From NCBI GenBank assembly GCA_017457005.1, contig JAFTII010000031.1:746-64745 (forward strand): a DNA stretch of 64,000 bases. Reading direction: 5' to 3'. The notes under the pieces are model-generated. The model worked only from the letters and a program-made list of their open reading frames with translations, had not been told where the DNA came from and did no database searches. This stretch comes from Alphaproteobacteria bacterium. GTDB taxonomy: Bacteria; Pseudomonadota; Alphaproteobacteria; RF32; CAG-239. Shown in pieces: positions 2,409-30,262 of the stretch. How positions within the stretch are numbered: position 1 is the first letter of the stretch; each line of letters begins with the position of its first letter. A program made the position numbers and the translations under genes.

Positions 2409-2412
2409 CTAA

Positions 2413-3135: not shown

Positions 3136-3150
3136 ATACCGTTTCCTATG

Positions 3151-3339: not shown

Positions 3340-3441
3340 AATAAAATACTTTCTCTCAAGGTATCAATACTCTTATAGATATTATGAGGTTATACTCTTT
3401 TATTTTAAATGTCTAACAGCTTAATTATACTTATCAACAAA

Positions 3442-8068: not shown

Positions 8069-9315
8069 TATAACATACCTCCCCATCCACTGTCTTCATC
8101 GCTATCATCTGTAGAATCATTGTCGGTATTTGTAGTACCGGTTTCTGTTTCGTTATTACCGTTTTTTTTATTACTGTTGTAGCCCACTTTTTCCGGGTCA
8201 GCATAATCACACAAATTAAATTTACCAGTAACCTCTTTTAGAGCAATCCCATTAATATTGTTTACATCTTGGGCGGTTTGTGTTTTCAGATCCTCAATAA
8301 GGACATCTACCAAATTGCGTATTACTCTTATTTGATTGGCTAGCGTTTCTCCAAGCGCATTTGAAGCCTCCGACTCACCGGGATATGTTGCTGCAACATC
8401 GGCGTTTGCATCAATATTATCTTTATCTACAACCATGCTGTTGCGAAGTTTTGCCATTTTTACCAATGCCTGACCGGAACTTTCTTGCATTTGCTTAATT
8501 CTTGCTTTTTTAATCTGAAGTTCTTCTTTAATGGATACTGCGTGAGTTTTAGCAGATATTTTATCAAGAGTATCTTTTATTGCTTCATCTGCACTTTTCT
8601 TTACTTTAGAAAGTCCTTTGTCAGCAAGATCTTTAGCAATTGCGGCAGCTATGGCAGCCAGTTCGGTAGCAAGAGCTTTGACCTCTGTATCTAAAGCGGT
8701 AATTTTGCTCTTATGCTCTTCATTTAATGCAACCAATTTATTATTTTGCACTTCAACATCTTGGTTAAGTTGGTTTTCTATTTGTGTGATTTGGTTGTGT
8801 ATGCTTTCAACCCCTGCAGTATCACCTCTTGTTTCCAGTACACCGATATTTTTACGTAAAGATTCTATATCAGCATCAGCTTCGGTTTTTAAGATTTCTA
8901 TTTCTTCTTCTATAGCCTTAACATCAGCCTGATTTTGTTCCTGAGCTTTTGACTTTTGTACTTCTAATTTTGCTATTTTAGTTGAGATTATAGCTGATTG
9001 CCCGACCGGACTTTGGACTACATTTTGAACCTTACCATATATATTATTTATTTTCTCTTTCATTCCGCTAATAAAACCTTTAGCTTCTTTTGCCTTTTCA
9101 ATACCTTTTCCTACAAATTTTCCAAATTGAGAATTTTGAATACCATCTAAAATTTCTTCTGCTTTTGTTTTGATATTTTGAATAGCATTAGTAAGTTTAG
9201 ATGGAGTTTTGCCCAAATCAAATTTAACAAAAAATGCAGAAGCATCTGATGCCGAATATGTAATTGCTATAAATAAGACCAAACAGAAACTGATATATCT
9301 AAGGAGTTTGTTCAT
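8068..9315 (-). CDS. Secreted all-helical coiled-coil protein (about 415 aa); possible elongated VirB5-like or pilus-associated protein
   Basis: Likely start MNKLLRYISFCLVLFIAITYSASDASA (ATG at 9315 after GAGGAGG), overlapping the stop of the upstream gene. Long heptad-like helical sequence with an acidic C-terminal tail. Confidence 0.5.
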   Translation of the reverse strand: MNKLLRYISFCLVLFIAITYSASDASAFFVKFDLGKTPSKLTNAIQNIKTKAEEILDGIQNSQFGKFVGKGIEKAKEAKGFISGMKEKINNIYGKVQNVVQSPVGQSAIISTKIAKLEVQKSKAQEQNQADVKAIEEEIEILKTEADADIESLRKNIGVLETRGDTAGVESIHNQITQIENQLNQDVEVQNNKLVALNEEHKSKITALDTEVKALATELAAIAAAIAKDLADKGLSKVKKSADEAIKDTLDKISAKTHAVSIKEELQIKKARIKQMQESSGQALVKMAKLRNSMVVDKDNIDANADVAATYPGESEASNALGETLANQIRVIRNLVDVLIEDLKTQTAQDVNNINGIALKEVTGKFNLCDYADPEKVGYNSNKKNGNNETETGTTNTDNDSTDDSDEDSGWGGML

Positions 9316-10390: not shown

Positions 10391-13117
10391 TTAGATGTTA
10401 ACATTTTTCCGATTATTAATATCCGTAGAATAAAAATTATGTATTTCGGATATGTTAATCATACTTGATAATATCTCTATCAAACGTATAGAGTTTTTAG
10501 CTGTTTGAGCAGACAATTTAATTAATTCACTTTGAAGTTTATTGATATCAGATCCTTCCGCACCTTCAGATGATGCGGGGCTTCCGCTTGCGCCACCGAA
10601 TTTTGCAGTCAAAACATCTTTTTGAACATCCTCAAAGTCTCCGGCTTCAGATTTTAACTTAAATGCGGTTTCTAAGTAATGTTTATTAATTTCATGCAAA
10701 ATTTGATCTCTTACCAAAACAAAGCCATCTTCCTCTTTTAAATTTGCAAGATAGTTTTTACATTCTTCCAATTTTGCAGAATCTTGAGCTGTTTCACTGT
10801 CTAATCCGCAAACCAAAGCCATTGTCGGAGGAATAATAAAAGTATCATCCGATGATGTTCCGTTATCTTTACCTCTATTGCCGGAAATTTTAATTTTTTT
10901 CAGTTCTTCTTCGCTATAATTTCTAAAAACAAAATTTTGATAATTAAAAATATTTGTCATTGCCAACTGCGAACTATATATTTTCAGTAATGAATTTATT
11001 TGCATATCTATACCTTTAGCTAATTCTACAATATTAGCATAGGCATCACTTTTGTGGGAATCAGCCGCATACAAAACCGGTTCAACATGTTTTTCTTCAA
11101 AAGCATCAGCATCATTTATAAGTTTGAACGCATCTGCAATAACTGCCGCGGCATAACGTGCCAAAACATCCATATAGAATTTCGGCGCTTCCGAAATTGA
11201 ATCGGTTTGCGCTTTTAGTCGCTCCTCATTATATTTAACTAAACATGCATTTATGACACCTTTTTCCAGAGCATCATTTGAGCTAATATTTCCACAAGAC
11301 ATTCCCATATTTTGAGGGATAATAAACGTACCATTTACGTCTGTACCGCCATCAGGAAGGCTTAGCGCCATCGCAAAAGCCATATTATCTTGATGATGTA
11401 TATTTGCGGCAATTGTTATACTATCTTTTTCCAACATGGACTTTTGAAAAGGTTTTAACGATTGTTTCTTATCGTCAATGACCCCTTGCATTGTTTTAAT
11501 TGAAGAAAGTGTCTCATCTTTCATCGGAATTTCAGCACTGACATCTAAGTCTTTATCTATTGTTAGGACCTTTGGCGCTTCTTCTGTTGTTTCTGTGGTA
11601 TCTTCAGCTTCTGTTTCTTCAGAAGCTGAAGCTTCTTCCGTCTCACTATCCGGAGTTTGGAACGGACTACGCAAACCTGTGCTACCTTCTTCAACATCTG
11701 CCGGAAGAGGGACAGAAAAACCTAACTCGTCATCCGAGGTCTCATCTTCCGTGTCTTCTATTTCTTCTTCTGATTTGATATCTTCCGGTATTACAAGCTC
11801 ATTCGTTATTGGCGGTAATACTCCTAAGTTTGCATTTGGCATATTTAAAGTATTCATCGGAGCATTGCCATAAGGCATCGGTGTGTTTATGCTTCCGGTG
11901 GTAGAATTTCTAAACCCTCTGCGACTAGTTGGCACTCTGTTATTGTTGGTTGTTCTTGGTTTGTTAAGTGTAGTACCGGATGTATTTGTTGAAGTTTGGG
12001 GAGTGATTGAAGATGATGTATCTTCTGTGACGGTACTTTCTTCCGTTTCTTCAGAAGTAGGATCTTCTCCTTTCGTTTCACTATCCGGAGTTTGGAACGG
12101 ACTGCGTAAACCTATAGTCTTTCCTTCAACATCTGTTGGAAGAGGAACAGAAAAACCTAACTCATCATCAGCTGTATCATCTTCATCATCAGTATCTTCA
12201 TCATCCGGAAGAGGTGTCTCATTTATTGGCGGCAACATTTCTTCCCCCTCAACAATAGGCAAGCCTAAAGTGTTTGTCGGAGTATCACCATAAGGTAATG
12301 GTGTGCTTATTTCTCCGCCGGAAGGAGTTATGAAACTATTGCGACTGGGGGTTATGGGCTTAGAGCTACCGCTTGAGCCTGAATTGCTAGGCATCATGGG
12401 CGGAGTTGCTTCGGAGGTTTCCGGCGAAACCTCAGGAACAGTCGTTTGTGGGGTGGGTTCTAATACAGGTTCTTCTTCCTCGCCTAAGGCTCCTTTTGCC
12501 ATATCGGCGTAATCTTCAACCTTATCCTTAATATCTTTTGCTTGCTCTATATAGCCTTCAGCTTGAGATTTAACATCTTCTACCTTGTCTTTGATATCTT
12601 CTACTTTGTCTTTTACGTCTTCTACTTTATCTTTGACATTTTGTACAGTTGATTTAGCCTGCTCCACATAGCCTTCAGCTTGAGATTTTATGTCTTCTAC
12701 CTTATTTTTGACATCTTCTACTTTGTCTTTGACCTCATCAACCTTATCTTTAACATCTTGTACTTTTTCTTCTATTTGACTTTTATATTTATCAAATTCT
12801 TTTTTGTAGTTTTCAGCTTTTTCTTTATAGTCATTAACTTTTTTAATTGCGGCGTCTATCTTTTTCTTATTCTCTACGACATATTCTTGCACTGTTGCTT
12901 TTGCGGTTCCAATTGCAGCAGAAGTTTTTTGCACGGTTTTCATCGCGTTGATTACTGTTTGAGACTGCTGAATTTGGGTAAACCATTGCTTGATGGTTTT
13001 AATAAAGCTCATTGAATCCAAGGCAGGCAATTGAGCATAAGCACCAGAAGGAAAACTAATACACATAAAACCAGCTAAAAACATTCCGATGATGTATGTT
13101 TTTGTTTTATTTTTCAT
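10391..13117 (-). CDS. Secreted repeat protein (about 908 aa) with four parts: coiled-coil heptad repeats, a duplicated acidic Pro-rich block, a Ser/Thr/Pro-rich linker and a duplicated Cys-containing C-terminal module; unknown function
   Basis: Start ATG at 13117 (MKNKTKTYIIGMFLAGFMCISFPSGAYAQ) after GGGAGGGTGAA. Repeats VEDVKDKVEDIK; duplicated DDELGFSVPLPxDVE...GLRSPFQTPDSET; C-terminal duplicated FIIPQNMGMSCG / FIIPPTMALVCG modules. No TM helices. Confidence 0.55.
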   Translation of the reverse strand: MKNKTKTYIIGMFLAGFMCISFPSGAYAQLPALDSMSFIKTIKQWFTQIQQSQTVINAMKTVQKTSAAIGTAKATVQEYVVENKKKIDAAIKKVNDYKEKAENYKKEFDKYKSQIEEKVQDVKDKVDEVKDKVEDVKNKVEDIKSQAEGYVEQAKSTVQNVKDKVEDVKDKVEDIKDKVEDVKSQAEGYIEQAKDIKDKVEDYADMAKGALGEEEEPVLEPTPQTTVPEVSPETSEATPPMMPSNSGSSGSSKPITPSRNSFITPSGGEISTPLPYGDTPTNTLGLPIVEGEEMLPPINETPLPDDEDTDDEDDTADDELGFSVPLPTDVEGKTIGLRSPFQTPDSETKGEDPTSEETEESTVTEDTSSSITPQTSTNTSGTTLNKPRTTNNNRVPTSRRGFRNSTTGSINTPMPYGNAPMNTLNMPNANLGVLPPITNELVIPEDIKSEEEIEDTEDETSDDELGFSVPLPADVEEGSTGLRSPFQTPDSETEEASASEETEAEDTTETTEEAPKVLTIDKDLDVSAEIPMKDETLSSIKTMQGVIDDKKQSLKPFQKSMLEKDSITIAANIHHQDNMAFAMALSLPDGGTDVNGTFIIPQNMGMSCGNISSNDALEKGVINACLVKYNEERLKAQTDSISEAPKFYMDVLARYAAAVIADAFKLINDADAFEEKHVEPVLYAADSHKSDAYANIVELAKGIDMQINSLLKIYSSQLAMTNIFNYQNFVFRNYSEEELKKIKISGNRGKDNGTSSDDTFIIPPTMALVCGLDSETAQDSAKLEECKNYLANLKEEDGFVLVRDQILHEINKHYLETAFKLKSEAGDFEDVQKDVLTAKFGGASGSPASSEGAEGSDINKLQSELIKLSAQTAKNSIRLIEILSSMINISEIHNFYSTDINNRKNVNI

Positions 13118-13192
13118 TTCACCCTCCCGCAAGACTTGATAGTTTAGTATATCATAGTCCACTATTTTAACCAAGAAAATAACTTCATTTTG

Positions 13193-15622
13193 CTAAATAT
13201 TTAAATATTTTGTAACAAAGTTATCTTCTCCATATTCTTTAATAAGTTCTTCAACCAGCAAAACATTTTTGCGGCCGGAATTATACAAGCGCAAATAAGG
13301 TCCTAAGCCGCTCAAATCCACATCAAGTATTACTGACTCTCCGGTTGCCGGACGAGATAATAAAATAGCATAAGGAAAATCACGATAACTTTTACCGAAA
13401 ATAAAATCTATTTCTGAGCCAGTTAAATTCCAGTTTTCGTAGTCTTCTACCGTTGCCTGAGGATTACGGAAAAAGATAACGGTTTGACATTGTCCGCGAA
13501 TAACTTCTCCAACGCCCAAACGGTCAATAATATTCGGCTGCTGGAATGCACACAAATATGCCTGACGTTTTTTACGACCTTCTTGCAAACCAATTACAAA
13601 ATAATCTCTAAACATCGGGTGCTTAAGCATTGGAGCCGTTTCATCAATCATGATAAGCGACGGAACACCGGTTTCTCCGGTTTCTGATTGGATACGGTGC
13701 ATAATATAGCTGATAACAGCAGGAGCTAACGTTTCATCCTCAAAAATATGAGTAAAATCAAATGCCATAAACCGTTTTGCTTTAAGGTCCAAACTATCAG
13801 TATCGCCGTTAAAAATTTTTCCGTATTGATCAGGATTAACCCACTTAAACAACTCCCTACGCATATTACCGGTAGGCGAAAAACAACTTTTATATAAGTT
13901 TGTCATCAGGCGTTCACTGGGACGTAAATAATCAAAAGCGGTTGTAACCGCACGAGCTATTTCTTTCTCAGAAATGGCGTCATCAACTAATGTGATAGCT
14001 CGCATCCATCTTCTTAAAAAAGCGCGGTTATTAGCATTATTTTCACAGTCAAACGGATTAAGCGAAACATTTTTTTCATCGCCCTCAAAACCAATGTATG
14101 CGCCCCCGATAGAACGAGTAAATATTTCTGCACCGCGGTGTCTGTCAAAGAAGAATACCTTTAAGTCATGATGGCGCATGGCCTGACCTGCCAAAAAGGT
14201 AAGCAACGTTGTCTTACCTTGACCGGTAGGACCGATAATACAACAGTGGGCAACAGCAGAATCATCGCCGGAAACATGGAACTGAAACCGGTATGCTGAT
14301 CCTGATGTTGTACGAAATACTGTAATAGCTCCCTTACCCCAGTCACTTTTAGCGAATCCTTCTGACGGTTTATCAAAACAAATTGCTGCTGCTACTACGC
14401 GGGACAAATAACGATAGGTCCGAGGCAGTACTTCATAAGTCGGAAACTGATTAAAAAACGTGGCTTGAGCAACCCAACCTTCTCTAACCGGGGTAACACC
14501 GAATAATCGGCAAATTCGTTGAACTTCACTTTCGGCAAATTCAATATCATCTTTGGTATCGCCTTGTAAAAGTATTGCCATTGCATATTCGGTCAGTGAT
14601 TGGTGATTGGCATCGCTATCTTCTATTGCTCCCAAAACTTCACTATATTGGTTGATTACATCTGAAGAAAAACTGGTCATTAAAGCCATACGTTGTTGTT
14701 GCATAAGCAACGCACGAGCTTGCGGCTTGAATATCGGACGAATATTGTGCAACAATACCAGCTCACTATCTATAGAGAGCAAGGAAGTTATCATGCTTTC
14801 ATCCATATAATCTCCGGATGAACGAATCCCCATTGCTGCCGCATATTTTTCCTTATCGCCGCTAAAAAAGCGGATAAGACCGTTTTCTCCGGTAAAATGA
14901 ATATGATCAGATGTCAAAAGCTCATTAAGATGATAGCCTTCCGCACTACCGATTTTTGGTTGAGGGCGGGTTATCGGACTACATATTTTTGCGTAAACAG
15001 AAAGAGGACCATCTTCTGCAGGACTTCCTTCAGCTTCAAAAAGTGTGGTTACACCATAATCATTAAGAGTGGCTATCAATGATTGAGAGGCATAATTTAA
15101 ATCTTTGAGATTATCATCTCTATCCACTACCGAAAGAACTATATAGTGAGAATTACTATATACACGGCTAAGATTAGAACTCCATGTATTGTCAATGTTC
15201 TCCAACAAAGCATTGTCAAAGTCTTTTTTATTTTCTTCCAGTGCCACACGTTCACGCAAAGTTATAATTCGGCAAGTTATTTGTAAGTCAGACATTCCGT
15301 CAATCCATGCTTTTCGGGCTTCCATCATGGATATAACTTTTTCATCAGTGACAAAGGCCAAATCAACTCCCGTTACTTTAAAAACACGCGCTAACGAACC
15401 GTTATAGCAACGGATAGTCATGCCATCGGACAACAACTTATTAAAAGGCAAAAAGTCCGAAACACGAGACTCTCTGGGATGTGGCAACACATAGTGCCCA
15501 AACTTGGTTGCCCAAAAACCGGCAAATGCCGCAGCAGAGACGAATCCTATTGCAGCAACAATAACTTCTAACGAACTTAAGCCTTGCACGAAAGTGCTAA
15601 AAAAATCAAAATCAGGGTGCAA
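13193..15622 (-). CDS. virB4: VirB4/TrbE/CagE-family T4SS ATPase
   Basis: 809 aa with N-terminal hydrophobic segments. Walker A GPTGQGKTT, DEAW-like box IMIDETAPML, and C-terminal RKKRQAYLCAFQQPNIIDRL (the RKxN...TQS..D motif). Overlaps virB3 by 11 nt. Confidence 0.85.
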   Translation of the reverse strand: MHPDFDFFSTFVQGLSSLEVIVAAIGFVSAAAFAGFWATKFGHYVLPHPRESRVSDFLPFNKLLSDGMTIRCYNGSLARVFKVTGVDLAFVTDEKVISMMEARKAWIDGMSDLQITCRIITLRERVALEENKKDFDNALLENIDNTWSSNLSRVYSNSHYIVLSVVDRDDNLKDLNYASQSLIATLNDYGVTTLFEAEGSPAEDGPLSVYAKICSPITRPQPKIGSAEGYHLNELLTSDHIHFTGENGLIRFFSGDKEKYAAAMGIRSSGDYMDESMITSLLSIDSELVLLHNIRPIFKPQARALLMQQQRMALMTSFSSDVINQYSEVLGAIEDSDANHQSLTEYAMAILLQGDTKDDIEFAESEVQRICRLFGVTPVREGWVAQATFFNQFPTYEVLPRTYRYLSRVVAAAICFDKPSEGFAKSDWGKGAITVFRTTSGSAYRFQFHVSGDDSAVAHCCIIGPTGQGKTTLLTFLAGQAMRHHDLKVFFFDRHRGAEIFTRSIGGAYIGFEGDEKNVSLNPFDCENNANNRAFLRRWMRAITLVDDAISEKEIARAVTTAFDYLRPSERLMTNLYKSCFSPTGNMRRELFKWVNPDQYGKIFNGDTDSLDLKAKRFMAFDFTHIFEDETLAPAVISYIMHRIQSETGETGVPSLIMIDETAPMLKHPMFRDYFVIGLQEGRKKRQAYLCAFQQPNIIDRLGVGEVIRGQCQTVIFFRNPQATVEDYENWNLTGSEIDFIFGKSYRDFPYAILLSRPATGESVILDVDLSGLGPYLRLYNSGRKNVLLVEELIKEYGEDNFVTKYLNI

Positions 15623-15902
15623 ATTTATTCCCCTTTTCTTTATATAGGTTATTAGATGTTTTGGCAGACTGACCGTAAGCCTGAATCATTGCGGAAACAT
15701 GAGGCTCTTTAGCCCCGATAGCTATGCAAACCAGATGCCCGATAACCAGTGAGCCCATAAACCACAGTGGGTTAGCATTAATTGTTCCGACACACATAAA
15801 CATTATCGGAAACTGGATACCCATATTAAGCAGAACCGGTAAAAACGGCCCCCACATAATTTTAGGCGGATTAGCTACGGCTTTGAGAATAATTTCACGC
15901 AT
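15612..15902 (-). CDS. virB3: VirB3/TrbD-like small membrane protein
   Basis: 96 aa with two hydrophobic helices, immediately upstream of and overlapping virB4. Size and position are typical of VirB3. Confidence 0.6.
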   Translation of the reverse strand: MREIILKAVANPPKIMWGPFLPVLLNMGIQFPIMFMCVGTINANPLWFMGSLVIGHLVCIAIGAKEPHVSAMIQAYGQSAKTSNNLYKEKGNKFAP

Positions 15903-16067: not shown

Positions 16068-16100
16068 GGGTGCCGGAAATGATTTATCTTTCCGGCACCC
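16068..16100. promoter_or_regulatory. Perfect 12-bp GC-rich inverted repeat (GGGTGCCGGAAA n9 TTTCCGGCACCC) between the VirB2-fusion gene and virB3
   Basis: Seen directly in sequence. Not followed by a T-run on either strand, so it is not a canonical intrinsic terminator; possibly an RNA processing/attenuation element or a protein-binding site. Confidence 0.3.
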
Positions 16101-16121: not shown

Positions 16122-18389
16122 TTAAAACAATACATTAACTAATCCGCCTAAAGTATTAAGCGCGTTATCAATTCCGTTCTTAATATTACCCATTGAATTG
16201 ATAGCTTTTTCAATACCGGCTTTGGTTTTGGTTGTTTCTTCACCATATTCGCCTTCAATGCCCCAAGTATTAGCTATCTGTTGATCTGCACTTGCTGTTC
16301 TATCCGCAATACCTTTAAGAGACTGCATTGCTTGATCTATATTAGAGCTAATCTGTCCTAATGAAGTCATCATAGCTTTGGGCTTGAGCGGATTTAAATT
16401 TTTGATTAATGACATAATGTTATTAACATTAGTAACAATACCTTCTCCAGCCGCCCCTATACCAACAGCGGTTTGTTTTACTGTGTTAATAGTATCTGTG
16501 GCATTTTTGATAACATTCATAATATCGTTTACGCAATCCATAATTTTACCACTCTTGCAGAAACCGCTTTTTTCATCAACCGGAACTTCTTCTTCCGGTA
16601 CTTCTTCTATATTAGGCAAGACTTCAGCCTTAGGCGGAGTTGGTTCATATATGGCGACAGGTTCAACGTATTCGTAATCGGCATCCGACAATACTTTTTT
16701 GATAGAATGTTTTTCCGTTTTATCGCCAAAAGAATCCAATGGTTTTGCAATAATTTCTTGCTTATCTTCAGCATTCGGATAAACCATATATTCTATCAGA
16801 CGTCCCATATTGGCGACCAAAAACAAACCGATAGAGATGTTAGCAAACCATTTCCAACTGATTTTATTAAAAACAGCAGCATAAGCAAACCCGACAAGAC
16901 CAAAGGCCGCCAGCAAATATGCTACAGGACGTAATCCGGCCAAAATTCTGGCTGCACGACGAGTAACAGAAGTAAAGACATCGTTATTTTTTGCATATAC
17001 AGTTTCATCAAGCTCTCCTTCTGATGCCATAAAATAATAGCCTTTTTCTTCATCGCTCAGCTTAGCAAATTCTGCGTCATACGCCTCTTTGGCAGCTTCA
17101 AGATCTTTATTAGCTTGATCAAGCCTATCTTTTAGTGTATCAGCCAAAGCGCAGAATTCTTCTCCGGTCATCATTGTGCCATCAGGGGTTCTATAGTATT
17201 TACTTTTATCCGCAGCTGCTTTACAGTTTGCAACAGCTTGGTCATACTGATTTTGCAGATTATTTACCTGAGAAGTCAGACTTTCATAATTACTTTTCTT
17301 TCCCTTCATATCTGCGGTCGGATTTTCCAGTAGAAAGGCATTTAGCTCTTCATCTGCCTTAAGTTTTTTGGCATAAGCTTCATCAGCTTTTGCTTTAAGC
17401 TCTGCTAATTTCTCTTTACTTTCTTCCATAGCAGCGCAAGCTTCTTTTTGTCCATGCGCACAAAGGAATGCAGCATCATAATAATCACTCTCGGTCTTTT
17501 GATAATCCTGCACAGCTTTGTTATAATCGTTATTTGCTTTGTCTGCGGCACTTTGTTTTTTTGCATATTCTTTAGCTATTTCTTCAGCACTTTTTTTTGG
17601 CTTATCAGAAGTTTCATCTTCATTAGAAGTGTCGGAATCTGAAGATCCTGATGATGTATCTTTAGGCTTTTCATCAGGATATTTGGAATAATAGTCATTT
17701 AGGCGATTTTGAGCCTCTTTGATATCATTTTCTGCCTTTGTCATTTTTTCTTTAGCATTTTCACACTTTTGCTTATCATAGCCACTACCGCTACATTTTT
17801 TAGCGATATTTTCTTTTGCTTTTTCCAAATCTTCTTGTGCGTTTTTTAAATCTTTTTCAGCATCTGCTTTAAAATCTTTAACATTATCAGCTGCCTTATT
17901 ATATGCTTTTTGCGCTTTATTTTTAGTGCTTTCTGCCTCTTTAAGAGCTTGTTTTAACTCATCTGTCTTATTGGCGGTCTCTAGATTTTTTCTTCCTGTT
18001 TCTGCAGCTTTATTTACCGCGTCAATCATAGCTTGCTTTTCTCCTTGAAGCTTAGCTAATTTTGCATGTTTCTCTGCACAACTTTCTTTACAGTTATCAA
18101 CTTCTTTTTGGGCATTTGCTATATCTTGATCATACTTCTGATTAGCCTTCGCCATTCCCTCTTGCTTAAATTTCTCAACCTGCTCATCTATGGCTTTTTC
18201 CACTTTATCCAAGGCCGCTTTTTTTTCATTATAATTTTGCTCTGCCTTGTCTAAGTCTGTTTTGGCAGAATTAAGTGCCGTTTCAACATCATCCATTGTC
18301 TCTTTTGCCGCCAAAGCACTTCCTGTAGGAACAGCAAGAAATACTAAAGCCAGTAATGTAATAAGGCTAAATGTTTTGATGTTTTTCAT
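16122..18389 (-). CDS. Fusion protein (about 755 aa): signal peptide, ~450-aa Lys/Glu-rich coiled coil, central VirB2-like two-helix pilin domain, ~220-aa C-terminal domain
   Basis: Start ATG at 18389 (MKNIKTFSLITLLALVFLAVPTGSALA) after AGGAGAA. Central segment LLAAFGLVGFAYAAVFNKISWKWFANISIGLFLVANMG matches the FGLVGVAFGAIFGKINWKWF motif of the two downstream VirB2-like genes. Confidence 0.5.
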   Translation of the reverse strand: MKNIKTFSLITLLALVFLAVPTGSALAAKETMDDVETALNSAKTDLDKAEQNYNEKKAALDKVEKAIDEQVEKFKQEGMAKANQKYDQDIANAQKEVDNCKESCAEKHAKLAKLQGEKQAMIDAVNKAAETGRKNLETANKTDELKQALKEAESTKNKAQKAYNKAADNVKDFKADAEKDLKNAQEDLEKAKENIAKKCSGSGYDKQKCENAKEKMTKAENDIKEAQNRLNDYYSKYPDEKPKDTSSGSSDSDTSNEDETSDKPKKSAEEIAKEYAKKQSAADKANNDYNKAVQDYQKTESDYYDAAFLCAHGQKEACAAMEESKEKLAELKAKADEAYAKKLKADEELNAFLLENPTADMKGKKSNYESLTSQVNNLQNQYDQAVANCKAAADKSKYYRTPDGTMMTGEEFCALADTLKDRLDQANKDLEAAKEAYDAEFAKLSDEEKGYYFMASEGELDETVYAKNNDVFTSVTRRAARILAGLRPVAYLLAAFGLVGFAYAAVFNKISWKWFANISIGLFLVANMGRLIEYMVYPNAEDKQEIIAKPLDSFGDKTEKHSIKKVLSDADYEYVEPVAIYEPTPPKAEVLPNIEEVPEEEVPVDEKSGFCKSGKIMDCVNDIMNVIKNATDTINTVKQTAVGIGAAGEGIVTNVNNIMSLIKNLNPLKPKAMMTSLGQISSNIDQAMQSLKGIADRTASADQQIANTWGIEGEYGEETTKTKAGIEKAINSMGNIKNGIDNALNTLGGLVNVLF

Positions 18390-18544
18390 CGCTGTTCTCC
18401 TGTAGTACAAGGCTCTATAAAATAGAGCATACGAATCCCTTTTGATTTATTATAACACATAAATTACTTATAAAGTGTTACAGTTTTTTGATTTTTTTGA
18501 AGGAATTTTCTAAAACTAAGGCAACTGAATTTATATTAGACTGC

Positions 18545-19306
18545 CTATTCTGCCGGTACTGCCGGTGTTTCTTGATCAACCGTAACACGCCTTGTTTCAC
18601 CCAGACCCGTTTCAAAAGTATCACCATAGAAAATTGTCGTTGTATCACCGGTAATATAAGTTACAATACCTCCGGCTGCCGCCAAAGCTGCCAACCCGAC
18701 AACAAGAGCTGCAAACCATTTCCAATTAATTTTGCCAAAGATAGCTCCAAAAGCCACACCAACAAGACCAAAACCGCCAACAATAAAGATAACAATCTTT
18801 AAATCTTTAAAAGTCTTAATTCCCTTATATAAAGCTAAGGTCAGAAGGGATGTTGTTGACTCTGCAAATGTTACAAAATTGGAACTGTCTGTATTCAGAG
18901 TATCTGTAATCATATTTTGGGTAAAGCCTTTGCAGCCGATAATCATATCAACAAGTTCTCCGGTACTGGCAATAACCACCAAAGAAATAACTATCGCTCC
19001 AAGCCACTTCCAGTTTAAGTTACCAAAGAATCCTCCGACAGCAACTCCGAGGATACCAAAGCCGGCAACAATATAGATTAAATCTCTAAGACCATTATAA
19101 ATTTTTATTCCGGTACCAACCAAACCCTCAAACAAGCCGCTTGAAGTGATACAACCGGTCATGGAAGTGTCTTGAGAGTTGCCTCCGGAATTTGTACCAC
19201 CGGATGCCGGTGGGGGAGTATCCTCAGCAAACACGGGGGCAACATAAGCACCAAAAGCAAAAGACAATGCGATAAGCATATATAGATATCTTAACCCTTT
19301 CATCAT
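18545..19306 (-). CDS. Tandem-duplicated VirB2/TrbC-like pilin (two pilin units in one polypeptide)
   Basis: Likely start MMKGLRY at 19306 after GGAGG. Signal peptide, then two repeats of the hydrophobic helix, K/N-x-NWKW(F/L) loop, hydrophobic helix pattern (GFGILGVAVGGFFGNLNWKWLGAIVISLVVIA and GGFGLVGVAFGAIFGKINWKWFAALVVGLAALA). Confidence 0.5.
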   Translation of the reverse strand: MMKGLRYLYMLIALSFAFGAYVAPVFAEDTPPPASGGTNSGGNSQDTSMTGCITSSGLFEGLVGTGIKIYNGLRDLIYIVAGFGILGVAVGGFFGNLNWKWLGAIVISLVVIASTGELVDMIIGCKGFTQNMITDTLNTDSSNFVTFAESTTSLLTLALYKGIKTFKDLKIVIFIVGGFGLVGVAFGAIFGKINWKWFAALVVGLAALAAAGGIVTYITGDTTTIFYGDTFETGLGETRRVTVDQETPAVPAE

Positions 19307-19434
19307 TGCCTCCGTATTATATGTTTGTGAAATTATGTTATTAAATTTCAACCAATTTTAATTGATTGAGGTTTAATAACACCAAATTAGAAAGTAATCC
19401 GGAGAGCCGGCAAGCTCTCCGGATCTTTATAATA

Positions 19435-19854
19435 CTATTCTCCTTCTCCGCCTTCAGTGTCTCCACCAGAATCAGCGGTAACGCCAATAGCGGCACCGGA
19501 ACTAGCACCAAAAGTATCGCCATAACGACCGGTTGTTGCATCACCGGTTGCGTAAGTTACGATAGCACCGGCAGCTGCCAAGATTGCCAAACCTACGGCA
19601 AGACCGGCAAACCATTTCCAGTTAATCTTACCAAAGATAGCTCCGAAAGCCACACCGACAAGACCAAAACCACCAACAATAAAGATAATGGTTCTTACGG
19701 CTCTAAAGGTATTAACACCCTTAGATGCAGCCAAAGACATTATTGAAGTATTTGAGTTGGCAGTGCCTTGAGCTAAAGCATCGCCGGACATTCCGAGCAG
19801 AGCAAAAACTGCTACCATAAAAAATGTCCAAAAATTGTTTTTAATAAATCGCAT
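19435..19854 (-). CDS. virB2: VirB2/TrbC-like T4SS pilin (single unit, 139 aa)
   Basis: Signal peptide ending ALAQG, then two Gly-rich hydrophobic helices separated by KINWKWF, resembling the ISWMFG loop of Agrobacterium VirB2. AGGAGAA Shine-Dalgarno. First gene of the minus-strand operon. Confidence 0.55.
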   Translation of the reverse strand: MRFIKNNFWTFFMVAVFALLGMSGDALAQGTANSNTSIMSLAASKGVNTFRAVRTIIFIVGGFGLVGVAFGAIFGKINWKWFAGLAVGLAILAAAGAIVTYATGDATTGRYGDTFGASSGAAIGVTADSGGDTEGGEGE

Positions 19855-20151: not shown

Positions 20152-21690
20152 ATGCAAAAAACGGCTTTAAAAACTTTTGTTTATAGTTTTTCGGTGTCTT
20201 TGTTTGCGATTTTTGTTGCAAACGGAGCATATTGGCATGTTCGCCCCTCGGAAAGCAAGATCAAAATCCCTAATAAAAACATTACCTTATTTCTTAAATC
20301 TTCTCCTGCCGGCACTGCGGCTCCGGTCAAAAAAATTGCTCTTAATGTGTTACCGGAAATTGCCGTTTTGCCACAAGAAATGCCCGATGAAGAAATTATA
20401 ATGGCAGATACAGATTTGCCTTTAATTCCTTTTGAAGATAATATTTTGATACCGGAGGAAAATAATACCCCTCAAATATTACCTGAAAAGCCGAAAAAGA
20501 TAAAAACTGCGGCTTTAATACCGCCTCCTTTAGTCAAAAACAGCGAAGAAACCTCTCCACCGGCAATTTTTGCTCCGGAATCAAACGAAAAAATCGCCAT
20601 CCCCTTGGAAGCGCCAAAATCTACAATAAGCAAATTAAACATTGCAAAAAAAGAAAAGCCGGTAAAGGAACCTGCTCCTCAACCGTCAATTGCCGTTAAA
20701 ACTCCGGAACCTTTACTACCCTTAGAAAGAAACCCCAACCTGATGTATTTGGCTGACAGTACAGTCAAAATCGGAAATCCGGAAACATTAAGCCATGTAG
20801 CAACAACCGAAGTTAATATTCCGGTCAACAGTATCAGCGCAGAAACCGCAAACACCCCTAAAGAACCCGAAAAACAAAGAAACTGGCAACAGATGTCAGA
20901 AAAACAAAAAAGCTCCGATTCACCATGGTTGGTTGCTAAAGCAAGCGGTGCAGTGCAAAATCTGAAGCTTAAAGAGGAAAGTTTCCAAAAGCCCATTGAC
21001 GTTGCTCAAAATCAACCGGAGGGTATTAAAGTGGCTACTAACACTGTCCAAAACTTGTTAATCCCCATACCGGATGACATCATGGAAGAAGAAAACCTTG
21101 TTCCTAAGCTATCTATTGATGATGACAAAAAAAATACCGAAAAAAAAGAAAATGTTACGGCATTACCGGCAGAAGAATCGAAAAAGGAAGTTGCAACAAC
21201 CGAAAAGCCTAAAAAGGGGAATATTTTATCCTCTCTGTCTTCTATATTTGACAAAGGCAACAATAAAAATAAAGAAAAAGGCTCGGATAAAAAGCCCAAT
21301 ATCATAAATTCCATCAAGAAAAAGTTGTCAGAATCATCTGCCGGAAAAATAATGCCAAAAGAAATGCGGTTATCTTTCCAACCTAATCGTGCAGAAATAT
21401 CAGGACAAACCCTTCGTTGGGTACAGGCCTTTGCAACCAATGTGGCAAAAAGCTCTTCAACACAGTTGGAAATACGCATTGACGGAACAACAACCACAAA
21501 CTTGCAACAAAAGCGGCTAAACCTTCTCTATAATATATTGCGTAATAAAGGTGTTGAAGAACATAAAATAGACACAGTATTCACGCAAAGAGAAGCAAAT
21601 TCTTTTATTTTGAGATTAGCCCCCATAAAAAAAGAGGAAATCGTAAACGGATATAATAAAATCACAGCAACAAAGTACAAGCAATGGTAA
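20152..21690 (+). CDS. Pro/Lys-rich exported protein (512 aa), first gene of the pilus-side operon; unknown function
   Basis: N-terminal hydrophobic segment, long PEPL/PKKP low-complexity region, structured C-terminal ~130 aa. No family recognised. Confidence 0.45.
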   Translation: MQKTALKTFVYSFSVSLFAIFVANGAYWHVRPSESKIKIPNKNITLFLKSSPAGTAAPVKKIALNVLPEIAVLPQEMPDEEIIMADTDLPLIPFEDNILIPEENNTPQILPEKPKKIKTAALIPPPLVKNSEETSPPAIFAPESNEKIAIPLEAPKSTISKLNIAKKEKPVKEPAPQPSIAVKTPEPLLPLERNPNLMYLADSTVKIGNPETLSHVATTEVNIPVNSISAETANTPKEPEKQRNWQQMSEKQKSSDSPWLVAKASGAVQNLKLKEESFQKPIDVAQNQPEGIKVATNTVQNLLIPIPDDIMEEENLVPKLSIDDDKKNTEKKENVTALPAEESKKEVATTEKPKKGNILSSLSSIFDKGNNKNKEKGSDKKPNIINSIKKKLSESSAGKIMPKEMRLSFQPNRAEISGQTLRWVQAFATNVAKSSSTQLEIRIDGTTTTNLQQKRLNLLYNILRNKGVEEHKIDTVFTQREANSFILRLAPIKKEEIVNGYNKITATKYKQW

Positions 21691-21731
21691 TAAGTCTTTG
21701 GAGAAGCTTGATTATTTAAAATTCAGTATGT

Positions 21732-22460
21732 ATGATAGGAACAAAAATGATAAATTACAAACAAGGAACTGCCAAAATGAAAACTAAAATATTACAAAAC
21801 ATATCACTCTCAGCGCTTCTGCTCCTAGCCGGATGTGCATATAATGATATATTTGGCGCAAGCAATACTTATGTTGAGCAAGCTCCTGATGTGGCCATTG
21901 TTGTGCCGCCACAAACATCAGGACATACAAAATCGCCAATGTTGGCAGACAATAACCCTATTAACTACCGTCAGGTTGCAGCAGATTATAGAGAATTCGG
22001 CGAAAGAACTCCATCTGACCAAACCATTGTTACCAGCGGATTTGGAAGTAATTTATCAGCTTCTATCCCTCCAACAATTGAAGAAGAAGTAAGCGACTAC
22101 GAAAATGAAATTAATGCCGCTATCGCAGAAGCAGAAACGGAAGCAGAAGAAGCCTTGACCGCCGAAGCTAAACAATCTGCAACCGATGATCCGGTTGAAG
22201 ACTGGTTAGCCGAAGAAGGAACAACTTTGAAAGGGTTGTTAACAGATTGGAGCGAACGCGCCGGTTGGAGATTGATTTGGAATACAAATCGTAATTATAC
22301 ACTTTCTGCCGGAGCTATGTTTAGAGGCAGATTTGCAGATGTAAGCTCTGCATTAATAAGAACTTTTGCAAGAGCAAGGCCTGCTCCCATAGCAACATTC
22401 TATAAAGGTAATAGAGTTTTGGTTGTTGAAACCATGGAGGACGAGAATGCATACAATTAA
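21732..22460 (+). CDS. Lipoprotein with TcpQ/PilL-like C-terminal domain (secretin-associated pilotin-like protein of type IVb pili)
   Basis: Lipobox LLLLAGCA. C-terminus GTTLKGLLTDWSERAGWRLIWNTNRNYTLSAGAMFRGRFADVSSALIRTF resembles the TcpQ/PilL2 domain (GW.L.W....Y.L pattern). Directly precedes the secretin gene and overlaps it. Confidence 0.5.
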   Translation: MIGTKMINYKQGTAKMKTKILQNISLSALLLLAGCAYNDIFGASNTYVEQAPDVAIVVPPQTSGHTKSPMLADNNPINYRQVAADYREFGERTPSDQTIVTSGFGSNLSASIPPTIEEEVSDYENEINAAIAEAETEAEEALTAEAKQSATDDPVEDWLAEEGTTLKGLLTDWSERAGWRLIWNTNRNYTLSAGAMFRGRFADVSSALIRTFARARPAPIATFYKGNRVLVVETMEDENAYN

Positions 22461-24048
22461 TTGGAAAAAATTCAGTTTAGGATTATTAGCTGCAGTAATG
22501 GCGGCTTCCTGTTCTATTTCAACAAAAATGGATGCCACAATTGAACGTGAAGTTGAGGCAGCTTCAAAACTCAAAGAAACAGCTAAAGTTCCAACCGCTT
22601 TGGCCAACCAAGACCTTATAAAAGTAAAAGATGATATTTGGCTTGGCGATACCAGCGAGATAGAATATGAAGGAGAGCCTTTACCTGCTTATTTGGATGG
22701 CAAAAACGGCATCACTTTGGTTAGCAACCGACCGATTACTCTCTTTGAAATCGGAGATATGATTAATAAAACAACCTCCCTCGGTGTTCGTTATGCTCCG
22801 CAATTGGAATCTGACGTTAAAAGTAAAGGCGCTGCCAATAAGCCTACAGCAGAGGCCGTAAATTCTGATTGGGCCGAACCAGATAAAATGCTGGTTTCTT
22901 ATCAGGGACCTTTGAGCGGATTGTTAGATGAGATATCTTCTCGCTTCGGAATTTGGTGGAAATATGAAAATAAAGAAATTTATTTTTATAAGTTTATTAC
23001 CAAAACATTTGTAATTTACAGTTTGCCAACCAAACCGAATATGTCTGTTAATGTAGGCGGAAGCCAAAGCGGCGGTGGCGGCAGTTCTTCCGTTAACTTG
23101 AGTTCATCCGTAGAAGTGGAAATGTGGAGCAATATTGAAAAAAGCATAAACGCCATTATCGGAGAAGGATCTAAGTTAACAACATCTCCGGCGGACGGAA
23201 CCATAACTTTAACAGCAACTCCAAGCGATATTAAAAAGGTGGCAAAGTTTGTAAACGAACAAAATATTCGTTTATCAAGACAAGTTGCAATCAGCGTTAA
23301 AGTTTTGCAAGTATCCGTTACCGACACCAACAACTATGGTTTGGACTTAAAAGCAACATTTAATGACGGAGTTACGGCATTTAATGTGGCTGGTTCAACA
23401 AGTGTTGCGTCTTCAGGCGGATTAACCAACGGCTTGTCACTCGGCATCTTGAAAAAGAATTGGACTGCGGATGCAGCCATAAAAGCTCTTTCACAACGCA
23501 ATAGCACAGCCTTAGTTACCAGCGGTACGGTTACAACACTTAATAACAAACCGGCACCGATTCAAGTTACGCAAAAGCAAAATTATATTGCCGAAATGAC
23601 CAAAACAAATAGCGGTACAGACGGAAATAACTATGATATATCAGTTACTACAGAAGAAATAGAAACCGGATTTACGTTAGATGTATTGCCCCGCATTTTG
23701 GAACATGGTCGGATGTTAATTATGTTTAACATGACTTTGTCTGATTTGGTTGCTTTGGAAAAAGTTGAATTCGGCTCATCTGATGAAAACCAATATATTC
23801 AAAACCCAAAAGTGGAATCCAGAGCATTCTCACAAGAAGTTGCTTTGTTATCAGGAGAATCCTTAATTTTGACCGGATTTGAAAAAGTTGATAACTCTAC
23901 TTCTAAAGAAGGAACTGGCTCTGCGGATAATTCTTTGTTAGGCGGTTTTGCTAATGCAGAAAAAGATCGCAGTATCTTGGTTATTATCTTAACACCGGTG
24001 GTATTGGAATCGCCTTTGACACCTGAAACCAGAATGAATATGAACTAG
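22447..24048 (+). CDS. Lipoprotein secretin (type IVb pilus secretin, PilN/TcpC/BfpB-like)
   Basis: ATG at 22447 after GGAGG. Lipobox AASCS. C-terminal secretin domain ending RSILVIILTPVV (the canonical secretin C-terminal block); Gly/Ser-rich linker mid-protein. Confidence 0.75.
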   Translation: MHTINWKKFSLGLLAAVMAASCSISTKMDATIEREVEAASKLKETAKVPTALANQDLIKVKDDIWLGDTSEIEYEGEPLPAYLDGKNGITLVSNRPITLFEIGDMINKTTSLGVRYAPQLESDVKSKGAANKPTAEAVNSDWAEPDKMLVSYQGPLSGLLDEISSRFGIWWKYENKEIYFYKFITKTFVIYSLPTKPNMSVNVGGSQSGGGGSSSVNLSSSVEVEMWSNIEKSINAIIGEGSKLTTSPADGTITLTATPSDIKKVAKFVNEQNIRLSRQVAISVKVLQVSVTDTNNYGLDLKATFNDGVTAFNVAGSTSVASSGGLTNGLSLGILKKNWTADAAIKALSQRNSTALVTSGTVTTLNNKPAPIQVTQKQNYIAEMTKTNSGTDGNNYDISVTTEEIETGFTLDVLPRILEHGRMLIMFNMTLSDLVALEKVEFGSSDENQYIQNPKVESRAFSQEVALLSGESLILTGFEKVDNSTSKEGTGSADNSLLGGFANAEKDRSILVIILTPVVLESPLTPETRMNMN

Positions 24049-24067
24049 AAGCAAAAGGAGAACCCCT

Positions 24068-25348
24068 GTGCTTGAAGATGCCAAACTATTAGATGATGAT
24101 ATTGACGGCGCAACAGCTCAGCGCTCTTGGGGTACGTCAATTACAGTTGATGGTGTTCAATATGCCACCAGTCTGTTTTGGCAGCCGTTACAAAACGCAA
24201 GCGACCCGTTTCAGGAAGTGGAAGAAGCTTCTGCCGGTGTATTGGAAGGCGCAGACTTATTTTGTATTAAAGGCGGAAAAGCTCCTCAATTCGGTATATG
24301 TGTATCTCAGGAAGGGTATAAAAGCGGAGAAAATGTTGCCGCAGTCGCATTAGCAACCGCATTATCTAATGTAGGCTCATTTATCGCCGTATTTAAGACC
24401 AATGAAGGTTGGTGGTACACTTGTATTCGTAATGATATTATTCTTTCTGACGGTGATATGCTGTTCTTAACAGAAGAAGAAGCTAAAGAACAGTTTATGT
24501 CTATGTTGGCAGTTCCGGATTGGGGCAAAAAAATTGCACCCAAAGAATGGGGATTTGAAGACACTGAAGATGTTGATTTGGCCGAAATTTTAATTAGAGG
24601 TGCAAAATCAAGATTACAGAAGATTAAAGCGTTAAGAGGTACAAAGCTTTTATTAGTAGTGGCAATATCTGCCGTTGTCGGAATCTGGTTAATATCAAGC
24701 TTGGTTGATAAATTGTTTTTAACCCCAACCGTGAGACCTGTAGTGGTACCAATAAAACCTAAAGTGGCGCCTAAAGCAGCTCCGGTGGTTGAAGAACCAA
24801 AACCGTGGGAGAAAGTAGCTGACCCCAAAACAATTATGGAAAATTGCTATCAAGGAATAACTGATTTGAATCAGATTCTTCCGCCGGGTTGGAATATCGG
24901 AAATATTGCTTGCTCAGGGACAGCTGTGGCTACAAGTTGGGTTAGAAGTATCGGGCGAGTTTCTTGGGCGAAAAAAGCTCTTGATAAATCGGGACTAAAT
25001 TTTTCAGGATATACTTTTTCTTCCAATGGCGGAAATTTATCGGCCACATTACCGATATCTAAAGCTGAAGAAAAAATGTCTCCTCCTAAATATACTCTTG
25101 TAGATCTGCAAAATGAGCTTAACGACAAGTTTCAGGCAATAGGGGTTGCAATATCTTTATCTTCAGATACAGAAAAAACACCGGCCGGAAAAATGTACAG
25201 AAGACTGAATTTTTCTTTAAAGTCTGAATATAACCCACTAACTTGGATTGAAATGTTAACAAAATATTCAGGACTTCGGATTAAAATGATAACCTATTAT
25301 CCTAACGACAAAACTTGGCAATATGAGGGAGCTATCTATGTTTTGTAA
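24068..25348 (+). CDS. Bitopic inner-membrane pilus assembly protein (R64 PilO / BfpC-like architecture)
   Basis: 426 aa with a ~190-aa cytoplasmic domain, single TM (LLLVVAISAVVGIWLISSLV) and a periplasmic domain. Position matches pilO in R64/PAPI-1 pil operons, and the size is similar to the ~430 aa I recall for R64 PilO. Confidence 0.45.
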   Translation: MLEDAKLLDDDIDGATAQRSWGTSITVDGVQYATSLFWQPLQNASDPFQEVEEASAGVLEGADLFCIKGGKAPQFGICVSQEGYKSGENVAAVALATALSNVGSFIAVFKTNEGWWYTCIRNDIILSDGDMLFLTEEEAKEQFMSMLAVPDWGKKIAPKEWGFEDTEDVDLAEILIRGAKSRLQKIKALRGTKLLLVVAISAVVGIWLISSLVDKLFLTPTVRPVVVPIKPKVAPKAAPVVEEPKPWEKVADPKTIMENCYQGITDLNQILPPGWNIGNIACSGTAVATSWVRSIGRVSWAKKALDKSGLNFSGYTFSSNGGNLSATLPISKAEEKMSPPKYTLVDLQNELNDKFQAIGVAISLSSDTEKTPAGKMYRRLNFSLKSEYNPLTWIEMLTKYSGLRIKMITYYPNDKTWQYEGAIYVL

Positions 25349-26684: not shown

Positions 26685-26691
26685 ATAAACA

Positions 26692-28383: not shown

Positions 28384-28393
28384 GAGATAAAAA

Positions 28394-29527: not shown

Positions 29528-29529
29528 AA

Positions 29530-30144
29530 ATGAACAAAATAAAAGCTTTTATAAGAGGATTTATAAAGTTATCAACCATATTAATAAAAAAAATATGGGA
29601 AATATTCAGACGTTATCCTAAAAAAATACAAATTGCAATTTTAGCTGGATTAGCTCTTGTAATATTAGGGATTTCTTGGTTTTCTGCTCCATTGCCGATA
29701 GGAAAAGCAGTTAAAGAAATGGAGGCTTTAGCCGGTAATATCAGGCGATTATACCAAAACAGACCGGATTATTGGGGGCTAAATACGCAGTTGGTACTTG
29801 ACAAAAAAATATACCCTAATAAAATGGGAGAAAACAATAAGCTGACCAGTCTTTTGGGTAATAATGTCTTGGTTGGAGACGGACATTTAGGTAAAGTTCT
29901 CATGCCCGGTTCTCGTAACTTCGATATCACATATAGTGAACTAACCAGAAAACAATGTATTCAACTGGCTACTCACGATTTTGACAGCTCTTTTTGGTTA
30001 GTGGTAATGGGTGTTACCATTGTAAACAATGAAGAACAACAGCTGTTTTCTTGGGAAGACAAAGAATATAAGCTACCGATTAGCATGGCTCACGCTAAAA
30101 AGTTGTGCAAAGACGGAAGCGCTATTGTTTGGCATAATGACTAA
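29530..30144 (+). CDS. Bitopic protein with basic N-terminus, single TM and periplasmic domain carrying a C-terminal Cys pair (pilin-like accessory protein?)
   Basis: 204 aa. Lacks the G / x4-E prepilin signature, so it is not called a pilin. Cys residues in TRKQCIQLA and KKLCKDGS suggest a disulfide-bonded domain. Confidence 0.35.
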   Translation: MNKIKAFIRGFIKLSTILIKKIWEIFRRYPKKIQIAILAGLALVILGISWFSAPLPIGKAVKEMEALAGNIRRLYQNRPDYWGLNTQLVLDKKIYPNKMGENNKLTSLLGNNVLVGDGHLGKVLMPGSRNFDITYSELTRKQCIQLATHDFDSSFWLVVMGVTIVNNEEQQLFSWEDKEYKLPISMAHAKKLCKDGSAIVWHND

Positions 30145-30262
30145 GGGATTATAACTTTGGCAATAAAAAAACTAATAAATTATACTTTCGGTCAAGTATT
30201 TTATGACTAAGGATAAGATTGTTCATAATTTATTAATCTGTTATAGTTAAACTATACACAAA

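Follow-up and report, generated by a model that had tools for sequence, protein, structure and literature searches.

VirB2, the pilin of type IV secretion systems (T4SSs), is usually viewed as a minimal subunit of ~75 residues, adhesion and tip roles being given to separate proteins such as VirB5. Ordinary VirB2 proteins are ~100-140 amino acids (aa) long, with the signal peptide directly before the pilin. The Bartonella Trw T4SS possesses tandem copies of normal-sized pilins and VirB5 proteins, and CagY of Helicobacter pylori is a size-expanded T4SS component. The multiple trwL (VirB2) and trwJ (VirB5) copies of Bartonella have been implicated in host-specific adhesion to erythrocytes (PMC2883598, PMC3406051), and size expansion has also been described for VirB6 of the Rickettsiales and for other T4SS parts (PMC12857230, PMC7648143). 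A 2025 review covers both extended VirB6 proteins and multi-pilin arrays, not extended pilins (PMC12857230), and literature searches on T4SSs of the RF32/CAG-495 lineage and on extended or fused VirB2 proteins returned no description. Here we analyse an extended VirB2 gene (16122..18389, minus strand) from a 64,000-nucleotide (nt) stretch of an alphaproteobacterial contig (JAFTII010000031.1, assembly GCA_017457005.1), hereafter the window. This is a real, conserved gene, and it encodes a complete T4SS pilin between two large secreted helical domains.

The extended gene and its pilin domain

The 755-aa product is read from an ATG as one uninterrupted open reading frame (ORF), and the same is true of five full-length orthologs (98, 87, 74, 46 and 40% identity); neither in the window gene nor in these orthologs does a stop codon or a frameshift divide a coiled-coil gene from a pilin gene. 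An upstream in-frame TTG start at 18410 is possible, but MKNIK begins all orthologs. The embedded form also recurs widely: an exhaustive HMMER search against 1.84 billion representative sequences returned at least 203 clusters at E<=1e-30, and among the best 150 clusters the pilin hairpin lies more than 150 residues from the N-terminus in 63, their lengths ranging from 458 to 2138 aa, although some are perhaps fragments. The ratio of nonsynonymous to synonymous divergence (dN/dS) across the gene is 0.1-0.4. At NCBI the near-identical protein MBQ9732378.1 is named 'hypothetical protein', and the family members that were checked carry only this name or that of a generic TrbC/VirB2 family protein.

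The segment between the two large domains, aa 463-536 (16782..17003, minus strand, as are all parts of the gene), comprises an outer helix (DVFTSVTRRAARILAGLRP, aa 463-487) and two transmembrane (TM) helices (~488-507 and 514-536), which are joined by the loop NKISWKW (K509, K513). Two hydrophobic helices, a short basic loop and a preceding amphipathic helix are precisely the elements expected of TrbC/VirB2 pilins. The PF04956 (TrbC/VirB2) profile matches aa 463-526 (E=1.2e-5, 25.9 bits; curated gathering cut-off 27.9), is listed in the precomputed Pfam annotation of three orthologs (P0001-P0003) and reaches 30.6 bits with a 689-aa relative of the same pilin class (class C, see below). BLASTP comparison of the domain with the neighbouring 139-aa pilin and 268-aa di-pilin gave E-values of 2e-12 and 6e-12, respectively. 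The two-helix segment LLAAFGLVGFAYAAVFNKISWKWFANISIGLFLVANMG, which the original prediction had regarded as homologous to the pilins of the neighbouring genes, is therefore present and related to them as stated, but it is only a part of the embedded unit. The sole match obtained by tblastn among 72,556 plasmids was a 'TrbC/VirB2 family protein' gene of Microvirga sp. VF16 plasmid pMVF16-3, and aa 466-538 of the window protein align with its 117-aa product (WP_203447090.1) from the first residue past the signal peptide through to the C-terminus (BLASTP E=6.6e-13, 73 aa). Since the window domain spans the entire mature Microvirga protein, the embedded unit is a complete mature pilin (~74 aa) and not the hairpin only. 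The same 74-aa unit covers the whole mature pilin of other members of the family (Agrobacterium tumefaciens VirB2, R388 TrwL), whose genes likewise lie upstream of virB3-virB4. Sequence searches of the PDB with the pilin profile and with a neighbouring short pilin (class A, see below) matched no solved VirB2, which indicates that the sequences are too divergent; the domain was modelled as a helical hairpin.

Judged by its sequence, the hydrophobic segment is a VirB2 pilin domain. The genomic context is that of VirB2 as well: virB3 begins after a 219-nt gap, in the same orientation, and overlaps the virB4 gene that follows it. The protein as a whole nevertheless departs from the small size which defines the family (~100-150 aa, signal peptide directly before the pilin), with ~435 aa inserted after the signal peptide and a further 219 aa behind the pilin. 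It does not resemble an extended VirB6 either, which would be expected to possess at least five hydrophobic helices: in 20 giant members of the family (the window protein and 19 others) hydrophobicity is limited to the signal peptide and the two-helix hairpin.

Three pilin classes in one locus

A scan of one genome per species recovered 35 related loci, all from uncultured Alphaproteobacteria. The organisms themselves are known from metagenomes only, and the record titles mostly refer to gut or faecal samples (human cohorts, roe deer, water deer, rabbit). When all ORFs were searched with a hidden Markov model (HMM) of the hairpin, three, rarely four, VirB2-domain genes were found in tandem before virB3-virB4 in every locus of sufficient length. 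These genes belong to three classes: class A is short and carries the signature FGK(I/V)NWKWF, class B is characterized by GGFFGNLNWKWLGA and an N-terminal extension, and class C, to which the window gene belongs, by AIFNKISWKWFANIAIGLFLVANMG. Hairpin identity within each class is 75-81%, and for the class C pilin domain the mean pairwise identity is 75% (32 loci); the idea that the class C hairpin is more conserved than those of A and B is thereby ruled out. A first helix and the loop GFG…F(G/N)(K/N)…WKW are common to all three classes, which on this basis look like one machinery.

On the minus strand of the window, the array opens with the class A gene (19435..19854), the presumed major pilin, whose 139-aa product exceeds the PF04956 cut-off (33.5 bits) and has an ortholog in every locus. 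Directly 3' of it, the stem-loop scan detected a GC-rich structure with a 13-bp stem (19396..19425). Next comes the di-pilin gene (18545..19351; 268 aa, or 252 aa from the start annotated in relatives), in which a class B unit is joined to a second class A-like unit (two PF04956 stretches, 39.2 bits; two HMM domains). Both of its pilin domains are complete. Since the next closest species (L002) instead has two individual 135-aa genes at the start of the array, the di-pilin is considered a recent species-specific fusion. The class C gene follows, with a 12-bp stem-loop (GGGTGCCGGAAA…TTTCCGGCACCC, 16068..16100; read from the sequence and partly detected by the scan) just past its stop codon, and after the gap come the VirB3-like gene (15612..15902; 96 aa, PF05101 E=0.018, two TM segments) and the gene for the VirB4 ATPase (13193..15622; 809 aa, TIGR00929 E=1e-115). 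The class C gene had been placed first in a virB3-virB4 translational unit; it is instead the third of three pilin genes, the stem-loop-containing gap separates it from virB3, to which it is not translationally coupled, and virB3 and virB4 form the only overlapping pair.

An equivalent of the stem-loop following class A, different in sequence (free energy -22 to -31 kcal/mol), is present in 21 of the 22 loci L001-L023. This conservation suggests that class A is produced at higher levels than B and C; the structure may act as an attenuator or as an mRNA-stabilising hairpin that sets pilin stoichiometry. In the L029-L036 group, a 38-nt gap follows class A and the stem-loop is absent.

Class C genes are present in nearly all of the 36 loci examined. 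In about 20 species their products are 689-1752 aa long with the hairpin embedded in most, and between species the extensions range from ~150 to more than 1200 aa. In a distant group (L024-L036), class C proteins are mostly 150-260 aa, with the hairpin directly after the signal peptide and a cysteine-rich tail; one of these loci, L024, additionally carries a 689-aa copy of this type. Some 50 weak matches of the first search proved to represent a sister lineage that shares both the architecture and the synteny. In this lineage (L038-L040; P0006-P0056; a 1.9-Mb contig in GCA_041324995.1), class C proteins are 903-966 aa long with the hairpin at about aa 400-450 (…FNKISWKHLANL…), and class C and virB3 are separated by an additional gene of 505 aa, encoded on the opposite strand.

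Synteny with virB3-virB4 is kept in all loci of sufficient length. Across L002-L036, VirB4 is 77-93% identical to the window protein and VirB3 63-85% (98% in the same-species locus L001), versus 22-57% for the accessory proteins, and the T4SS thus appears to be vertically inherited with a conserved core. The only solved structure matched by VirB4 is TrwK of R388 (E=1.3e-42). The closest plasmid T4SS found, that of Microvirga pMVF16-3, is a conjugative-type cluster with one ordinary VirB2; with these as the nearest relatives, the three-class set and the extensions are best seen as elaborations of the standard type IVA layout. The locus is chromosomal, as genes with housekeeping domains (YidC, ribosomal protein S1, NAD-dependent glycerol-3-phosphate dehydrogenase and others) share the window. 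We accordingly assign the extended VirB2, as class C, to the three-pilin set of a chromosomal T4SS of the VirB/Trw type (type IVA).

The system resembles Bartonella Trw in several respects: it is chromosomal and of VirB/Trw type, occurs in an animal-associated alphaproteobacterium, and combines several adjacent VirB2 paralogs with surface components that vary. Neither a coupling protein nor a relaxase was seen near the locus, and no relaxase was found in the whole 64-kb window. Here, however, it is the large domains attached to a single pilin paralog that vary, and the three classes did not arise by recent tandem duplication but constitute old orthologous groups. The likeness to extended VirB6 lies in the very large hydrophilic extensions of a core T4SS component that is chromosomal and apparently vertically inherited, but the component expanded here is the pilin and not the polytopic VirB6 or VirB10.

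Two extensions and an exchangeable module

The signal peptide that had been proposed for the protein was recovered as aa 1-27 (MKNIKTFSLITLLALVFLAVPTGSALA, 18309..18389; hydrophobic segment 9-27, with the cleavage site predicted between GSALA and AKE), and a signal-like N-terminus is kept in all giants. The following ~450 aa had been described as a Lys/Glu/Ala-rich coiled coil. Such a composition was indeed found for aa 28-445 (K 14-20%, A 16-19%, E 11-12%), and the region is modelled as long helices with a predicted local distance difference test (pLDDT) score of 70-90, yet in the model these form two intramolecular antiparallel modules, separated by a linker, rather than one continuous coiled coil. 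Module 1 (aa 32-236; AlphaFold2 pLDDT 80-90) consists of three long helices (H32-98, H105-198 and H206-236) with the cysteine pairs C100/C104 and C199/C209, and it lies within a distal module, aa 28-260 (17610..18308), which the strain comparison presented below defines as variable. A Ser/Asp/Lys-rich linker (aa 238-268, 17586..17678), which appears disordered from its composition and from pLDDT values below 50 at aa 244-266, leads to module 2 (aa 269-445, 17055..17585; modelled over aa 268-441 with pLDDT 70-83), the one nearest the pilin domain in sequence. Module 2 is composed of four helices and a short beta-hairpin, contains the pairs C310/C318 and C389/C413, and is kept across species: tblastn matches in other species start at aa 144-340, and its cysteines are invariant.

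On the other side of the pilin domain, the ~220-aa Gly/Asn/Ile-rich C-terminal domain of the original prediction is there, at 219 aa, but it divides into two parts. The first is a 73-aa acidic, Pro-rich linker (aa 537-609, 16563..16781; net charge -11, 9 Pro) with the conserved motif FGD…D.EY.WV…PY.P, disordered in both models. The second is a 146-aa Ile/Asn/Gly-rich helical domain (aa 610-755, 16125..16562) that opens with the invariant motif GFC…C.(K/N)D (C611/C619); it is modelled as four helices (pLDDT 60-76), and in other species the giants retain it as far as about aa 707-740. The full-length AlphaFold model was built from six sequences only (mean pLDDT 64), and the C-terminal region was modelled separately (mean pLDDT 55). 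Pfam and NCBIfam searches of both extensions returned coiled-coil noise only, and those of seven larger relatives found only TrbC and two sub-threshold, chance-level matches.

The ten invariant cysteines are spaced in a way that suggests the five pairs listed above; three of these (C100/C104, C199/C209 and C310/C318) sit where the modelled helices turn, and the small beta-hairpin lies between C389 and C413. Over 20 giants, the number of cysteines varies from 2 to 12 in the N-terminal extension and from 2 to 6 in the C-terminal one, but is always even, and the hairpin has none. Because even counts are a signature of disulfide bonding, both extensions look disulfide-bonded and hence extracytoplasmic. 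The resulting topology would agree with that of standard VirB2, in which the loop is cytoplasmic and the two ends are external. The fusion of a pilin domain to large extracytoplasmic domains, as first proposed, is real and is uninterrupted in the five full-length orthologs, down to 40% identity.

Within the species, one of the extensions is exchanged. Flanking DNA of a second strain (L037) is 98.5% identical to the window and aa 261-755 of the protein are 95-99% identical, but identity drops to 30-39% in aa 28-260; a third allele (L041) is 60-78% identical in this module versus 91-99% for the remainder. Synonymous divergence (dS) in aa 28-260 amounts to 1.35 against L037 (dN/dS 0.38) and 0.93 against L041 (dN/dS 0.20), as compared to 0.03-0.06 for aa 261-545, 0.00-0.06 in its segments aa 261-445 and 446-545 against either strain (dN/dS 0.14-0.23 where calculable) and 0.22 in aa 546-755 against L041 (dN/dS 0.14). 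Since high dS in the module stands beside low dS in the adjacent regions, aa 28-260 was replaced by old, divergent alleles through recombination and not altered by fast point mutation. Silent cassettes for the module were not found in the 64-kb window. Of the sister lineage, 51 clusters with more than 10% difference vary chiefly over the final 120 aa. What varies in either lineage is therefore the terminus of an extension, which is distant from the hairpin along the sequence. By analogy, this allele swapping suggests a protein exposed at the surface, for which it is typical.

Possible roles of the extended pilin

The reading that we prefer, with a probability of about 0.5, is that the extended VirB2 is a minor pilin which co-assembles with class A and displays its variable domains on the pilus. 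The protein would be exported by the Sec pathway and its signal peptide cleaved, after which the hairpin would reside in the inner membrane with the NKISWKW loop in the cytoplasm, leaving aa 28-445 and 537-755 in the periplasm, where the cysteine pairs could form disulfides. The T4SS would then pull class C from the membrane as it does an ordinary pilin and add a few copies to a mainly class A pilus. Carried on their flexible linkers, the two extensions would protrude from the surface or the tip of the filament, and the distal module (aa 28-260, or the C-terminal end in the sister lineage), the exchange of which is observed, could provide a variable binding or antigenic surface. In the solved T-pilus the VirB2 termini face outward (bioRxiv 10.1101/2022.09.25.509369), and both extensions would therefore project from a filament of this kind. 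Assembly is favoured over a plain membrane anchor because the full pilin including the outer helix is retained, because classes A, B and C share the first helix and the WKW loop, and because the class A stem-loop is so widely kept. Together, the apparently disulfide-bonded extensions, the outward VirB2 termini and the terminal modules that are hypervariable within species favour an exposed, pilus-associated role, and the pilus-tip, stalk or anchoring adaptor suggested originally is plausible.

Several observations weigh against this assignment. The PF04956 score of the window protein lies 2 bits under the curated cut-off, the structure models are of low to moderate confidence and the hairpin is poorly scored in the full-length one. 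A tight pilus may not readily accommodate subunits that each carry two bulky domains, save at the tip or at low occupancy. Fold and sequence searches of the extensions gave only generic helical bundles, without an adhesin or receptor-binding fold. Positive selection on the variable module is unsupported, its dN/dS of 0.2-0.4 being accompanied by saturated dS, which points to allele exchange. Finally, a VirB6-like polytopic protein, VirB10 and VirD4 were not found in the 64-kb window.

A tentative alternative, which we consider somewhat unlikely, is that the protein never leaves the cell: the hairpin would anchor it at the inner-membrane complex of the T4SS (for example, at the VirB6/VirB3/VirB4 platform), and the helical domains would serve as a periplasmic stalk, cage or spacer. 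The hairpin is the sole membrane element, both domains would in any case be periplasmic prior to assembly, and the modelled helices are long enough for periplasmic distances. Furthermore, pilins are needed by most Gram-negative T4SSs even without a pilus (PMC12857230), and neither VirB5 nor VirB6 was recognised at the locus, which leaves some structural roles unassigned. However, the swapping of aa 28-260 for alleles of 30-39% identity within a species would be unusual for a buried part, as would the C-terminal hypervariability of the sister lineage. The retention of a whole mature pilin, with the outer helix and the WKW loop common to A and B, would be needless for a plain anchor, and a fixed periplasmic geometry would not readily allow the broad range of extension lengths.

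Display on the pilus could also take a more specific form. VirB5 is a secreted, helical protein of ~220 aa that is located at the pilus tip and nucleates assembly on VirB6, the pilus growing from the base beneath the VirB5 tip complex (PMC12857230). With VirB5 unrecognised here, a tip position is attractive by analogy. One can envisage a heteropolymeric pilus of all three pilin classes in which five class C subunits form the first layer of the tip, their fused domains making up a tip fibre that takes over the nucleating and adhesive role of a separate VirB5 pentamer, with module swaps that retarget or disguise the tip; we regard this elaborate version as speculative and unlikely. The C-terminal domain is helical and of a size similar to that of VirB5 (PF07996; TraC of pKM101, TrwJ), but PF07996 matched neither aa 601-755 at E-values up to 1 nor the whole protein at E-values up to 0.1. 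A single pairwise match was obtained between aa 601-744 (16122-16589, minus strand) and the 273-aa secreted protein at the VirB5 position of Microvirga pMVF16-3, the gene of which directly follows virB4 (L042 14351-15172; BLASTP E=0.001, 23% over 148 aa); this protein itself matches PF07996 faintly (E=0.17). Homology to VirB5 was not upheld by hhalign comparison with the family of this Microvirga protein, which gave probabilities of 2% and 11% (the latter with E=0.0028 over 46 columns); a VirB2-VirB5-like fusion would be a tentative reading of the pairwise match.

A further possibility is that the 755-aa protein is a precursor, cut on both sides of the pilin domain to yield an ordinary pilin together with soluble fragments that are periplasmic or secreted. 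Processing at both ends occurs in P-type pilins (RP4 TrbC; T-pilin), and flexible low-complexity linkers are found on the C-terminal side of the pilin domain and ahead of module 2. The giants nevertheless lack a conserved AxA signal-peptidase-like site before the pilin domain (the junctions read VYAKNND, IDYSNTGD and ELYTNTDD), and the ORF scan, which was not exhaustive, revealed no TraF-like peptidase. As the conserved FGD…EY.WV…PY.P stretch after the hairpin suggests that this segment stays attached, and as two pilin genes of ordinary size are already there, making the production of a third from a precursor seem unneeded, we consider such processing improbable.

It is less probable still that the protein is an effector or toxin which inserts into the membrane of a target cell in the manner of alpha-pore-forming proteins of the ClyA/Hbl/MakA type. 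The resemblances (Hbl L1, E=0.038; ClyA, Hbl-B and AhlC among Foldseek matches with E>0.5) are weak, generic and non-significant, as is typical of any helical bundle, no significant match to this toxin family was obtained, and the hairpin is clearly a VirB2 homolog within a pilin gene array. An artefact, be it a misjoined coiled-coil gene and pilin gene or a decaying pseudogene, is excluded because independent assemblies, samples and species share the uninterrupted architecture, and is also contradicted by the 63 embedded-form clusters, the low dN/dS and the invariant cysteine pairs.

Beyond the pilin array, virB4 is followed on the minus strand by genes for five secreted proteins without recognisable domains (927, 169, 184, 425 and 1293 aa), two virB8 genes and virB9. 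The related loci retain this gene order. The 927-aa protein (10391-13174) contains 21-nt and 117-nt tandem repeats (VKDKVEDVKDKVEDIK…) at 12536-12771 and Ser/Thr/Pro/acidic low-complexity sequence; it is reduced to 764 aa in two strains of the same species and thus constitutes a second variable spot of the operon, and its N-terminus is weakly similar to the Microvirga protein in the VirB5 position (BLASTP E=0.008). The 1293-aa protein (4205-8086) keeps its position in other loci with 22-48% identity outside the same-species locus. The duplicated virB8 genes (249 and 240 aa) precede a 536-aa CagX/VirB9-like gene (798-4191), and a lone VirB11-like ATPase gene (56877-57842, plus strand; 321 aa) adjoins the gene of ribosomal protein S1, 40 kb off. 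Such a scattered layout of T4SS genes resembles that of the Rickettsiales. Divergent from the T4SS pilin genes is a type IVb pilus cluster (20152-30928, plus strand) coding for TcpQ, a secretin, a T2SSE ATPase, a T2SSF platform protein and two bundlin/PilS-like pilins. The two clusters adjoin each other in nearly all related loci of sufficient length, an arrangement that recalls the T4SS and thin-pilus pairing of IncI plasmids, but here it is chromosomal.

A conserved pilin with up to ~2000 extra residues would surprise a T4SS specialist. If the preferred reading of the extended VirB2 as a displayed minor pilin is true, a pilin bearing hundreds to thousands of extra residues on both of its outward ends would alter the view of VirB2 as a minimal subunit and mean that the T4SS pilus lattice, or the assembly platform, tolerates large cargo, which could offer a route to engineered display on conjugative pili. 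The more specific tip arrangement, if true, would amount to a new way of building the tip of a conjugative-type pilus, and possibly to a host- or prey-recognition device in a common uncultured gut lineage. More generally, the locus points to a strain-variable surface structure in a widespread lineage of gut Alphaproteobacteria, the biology of which is little known.

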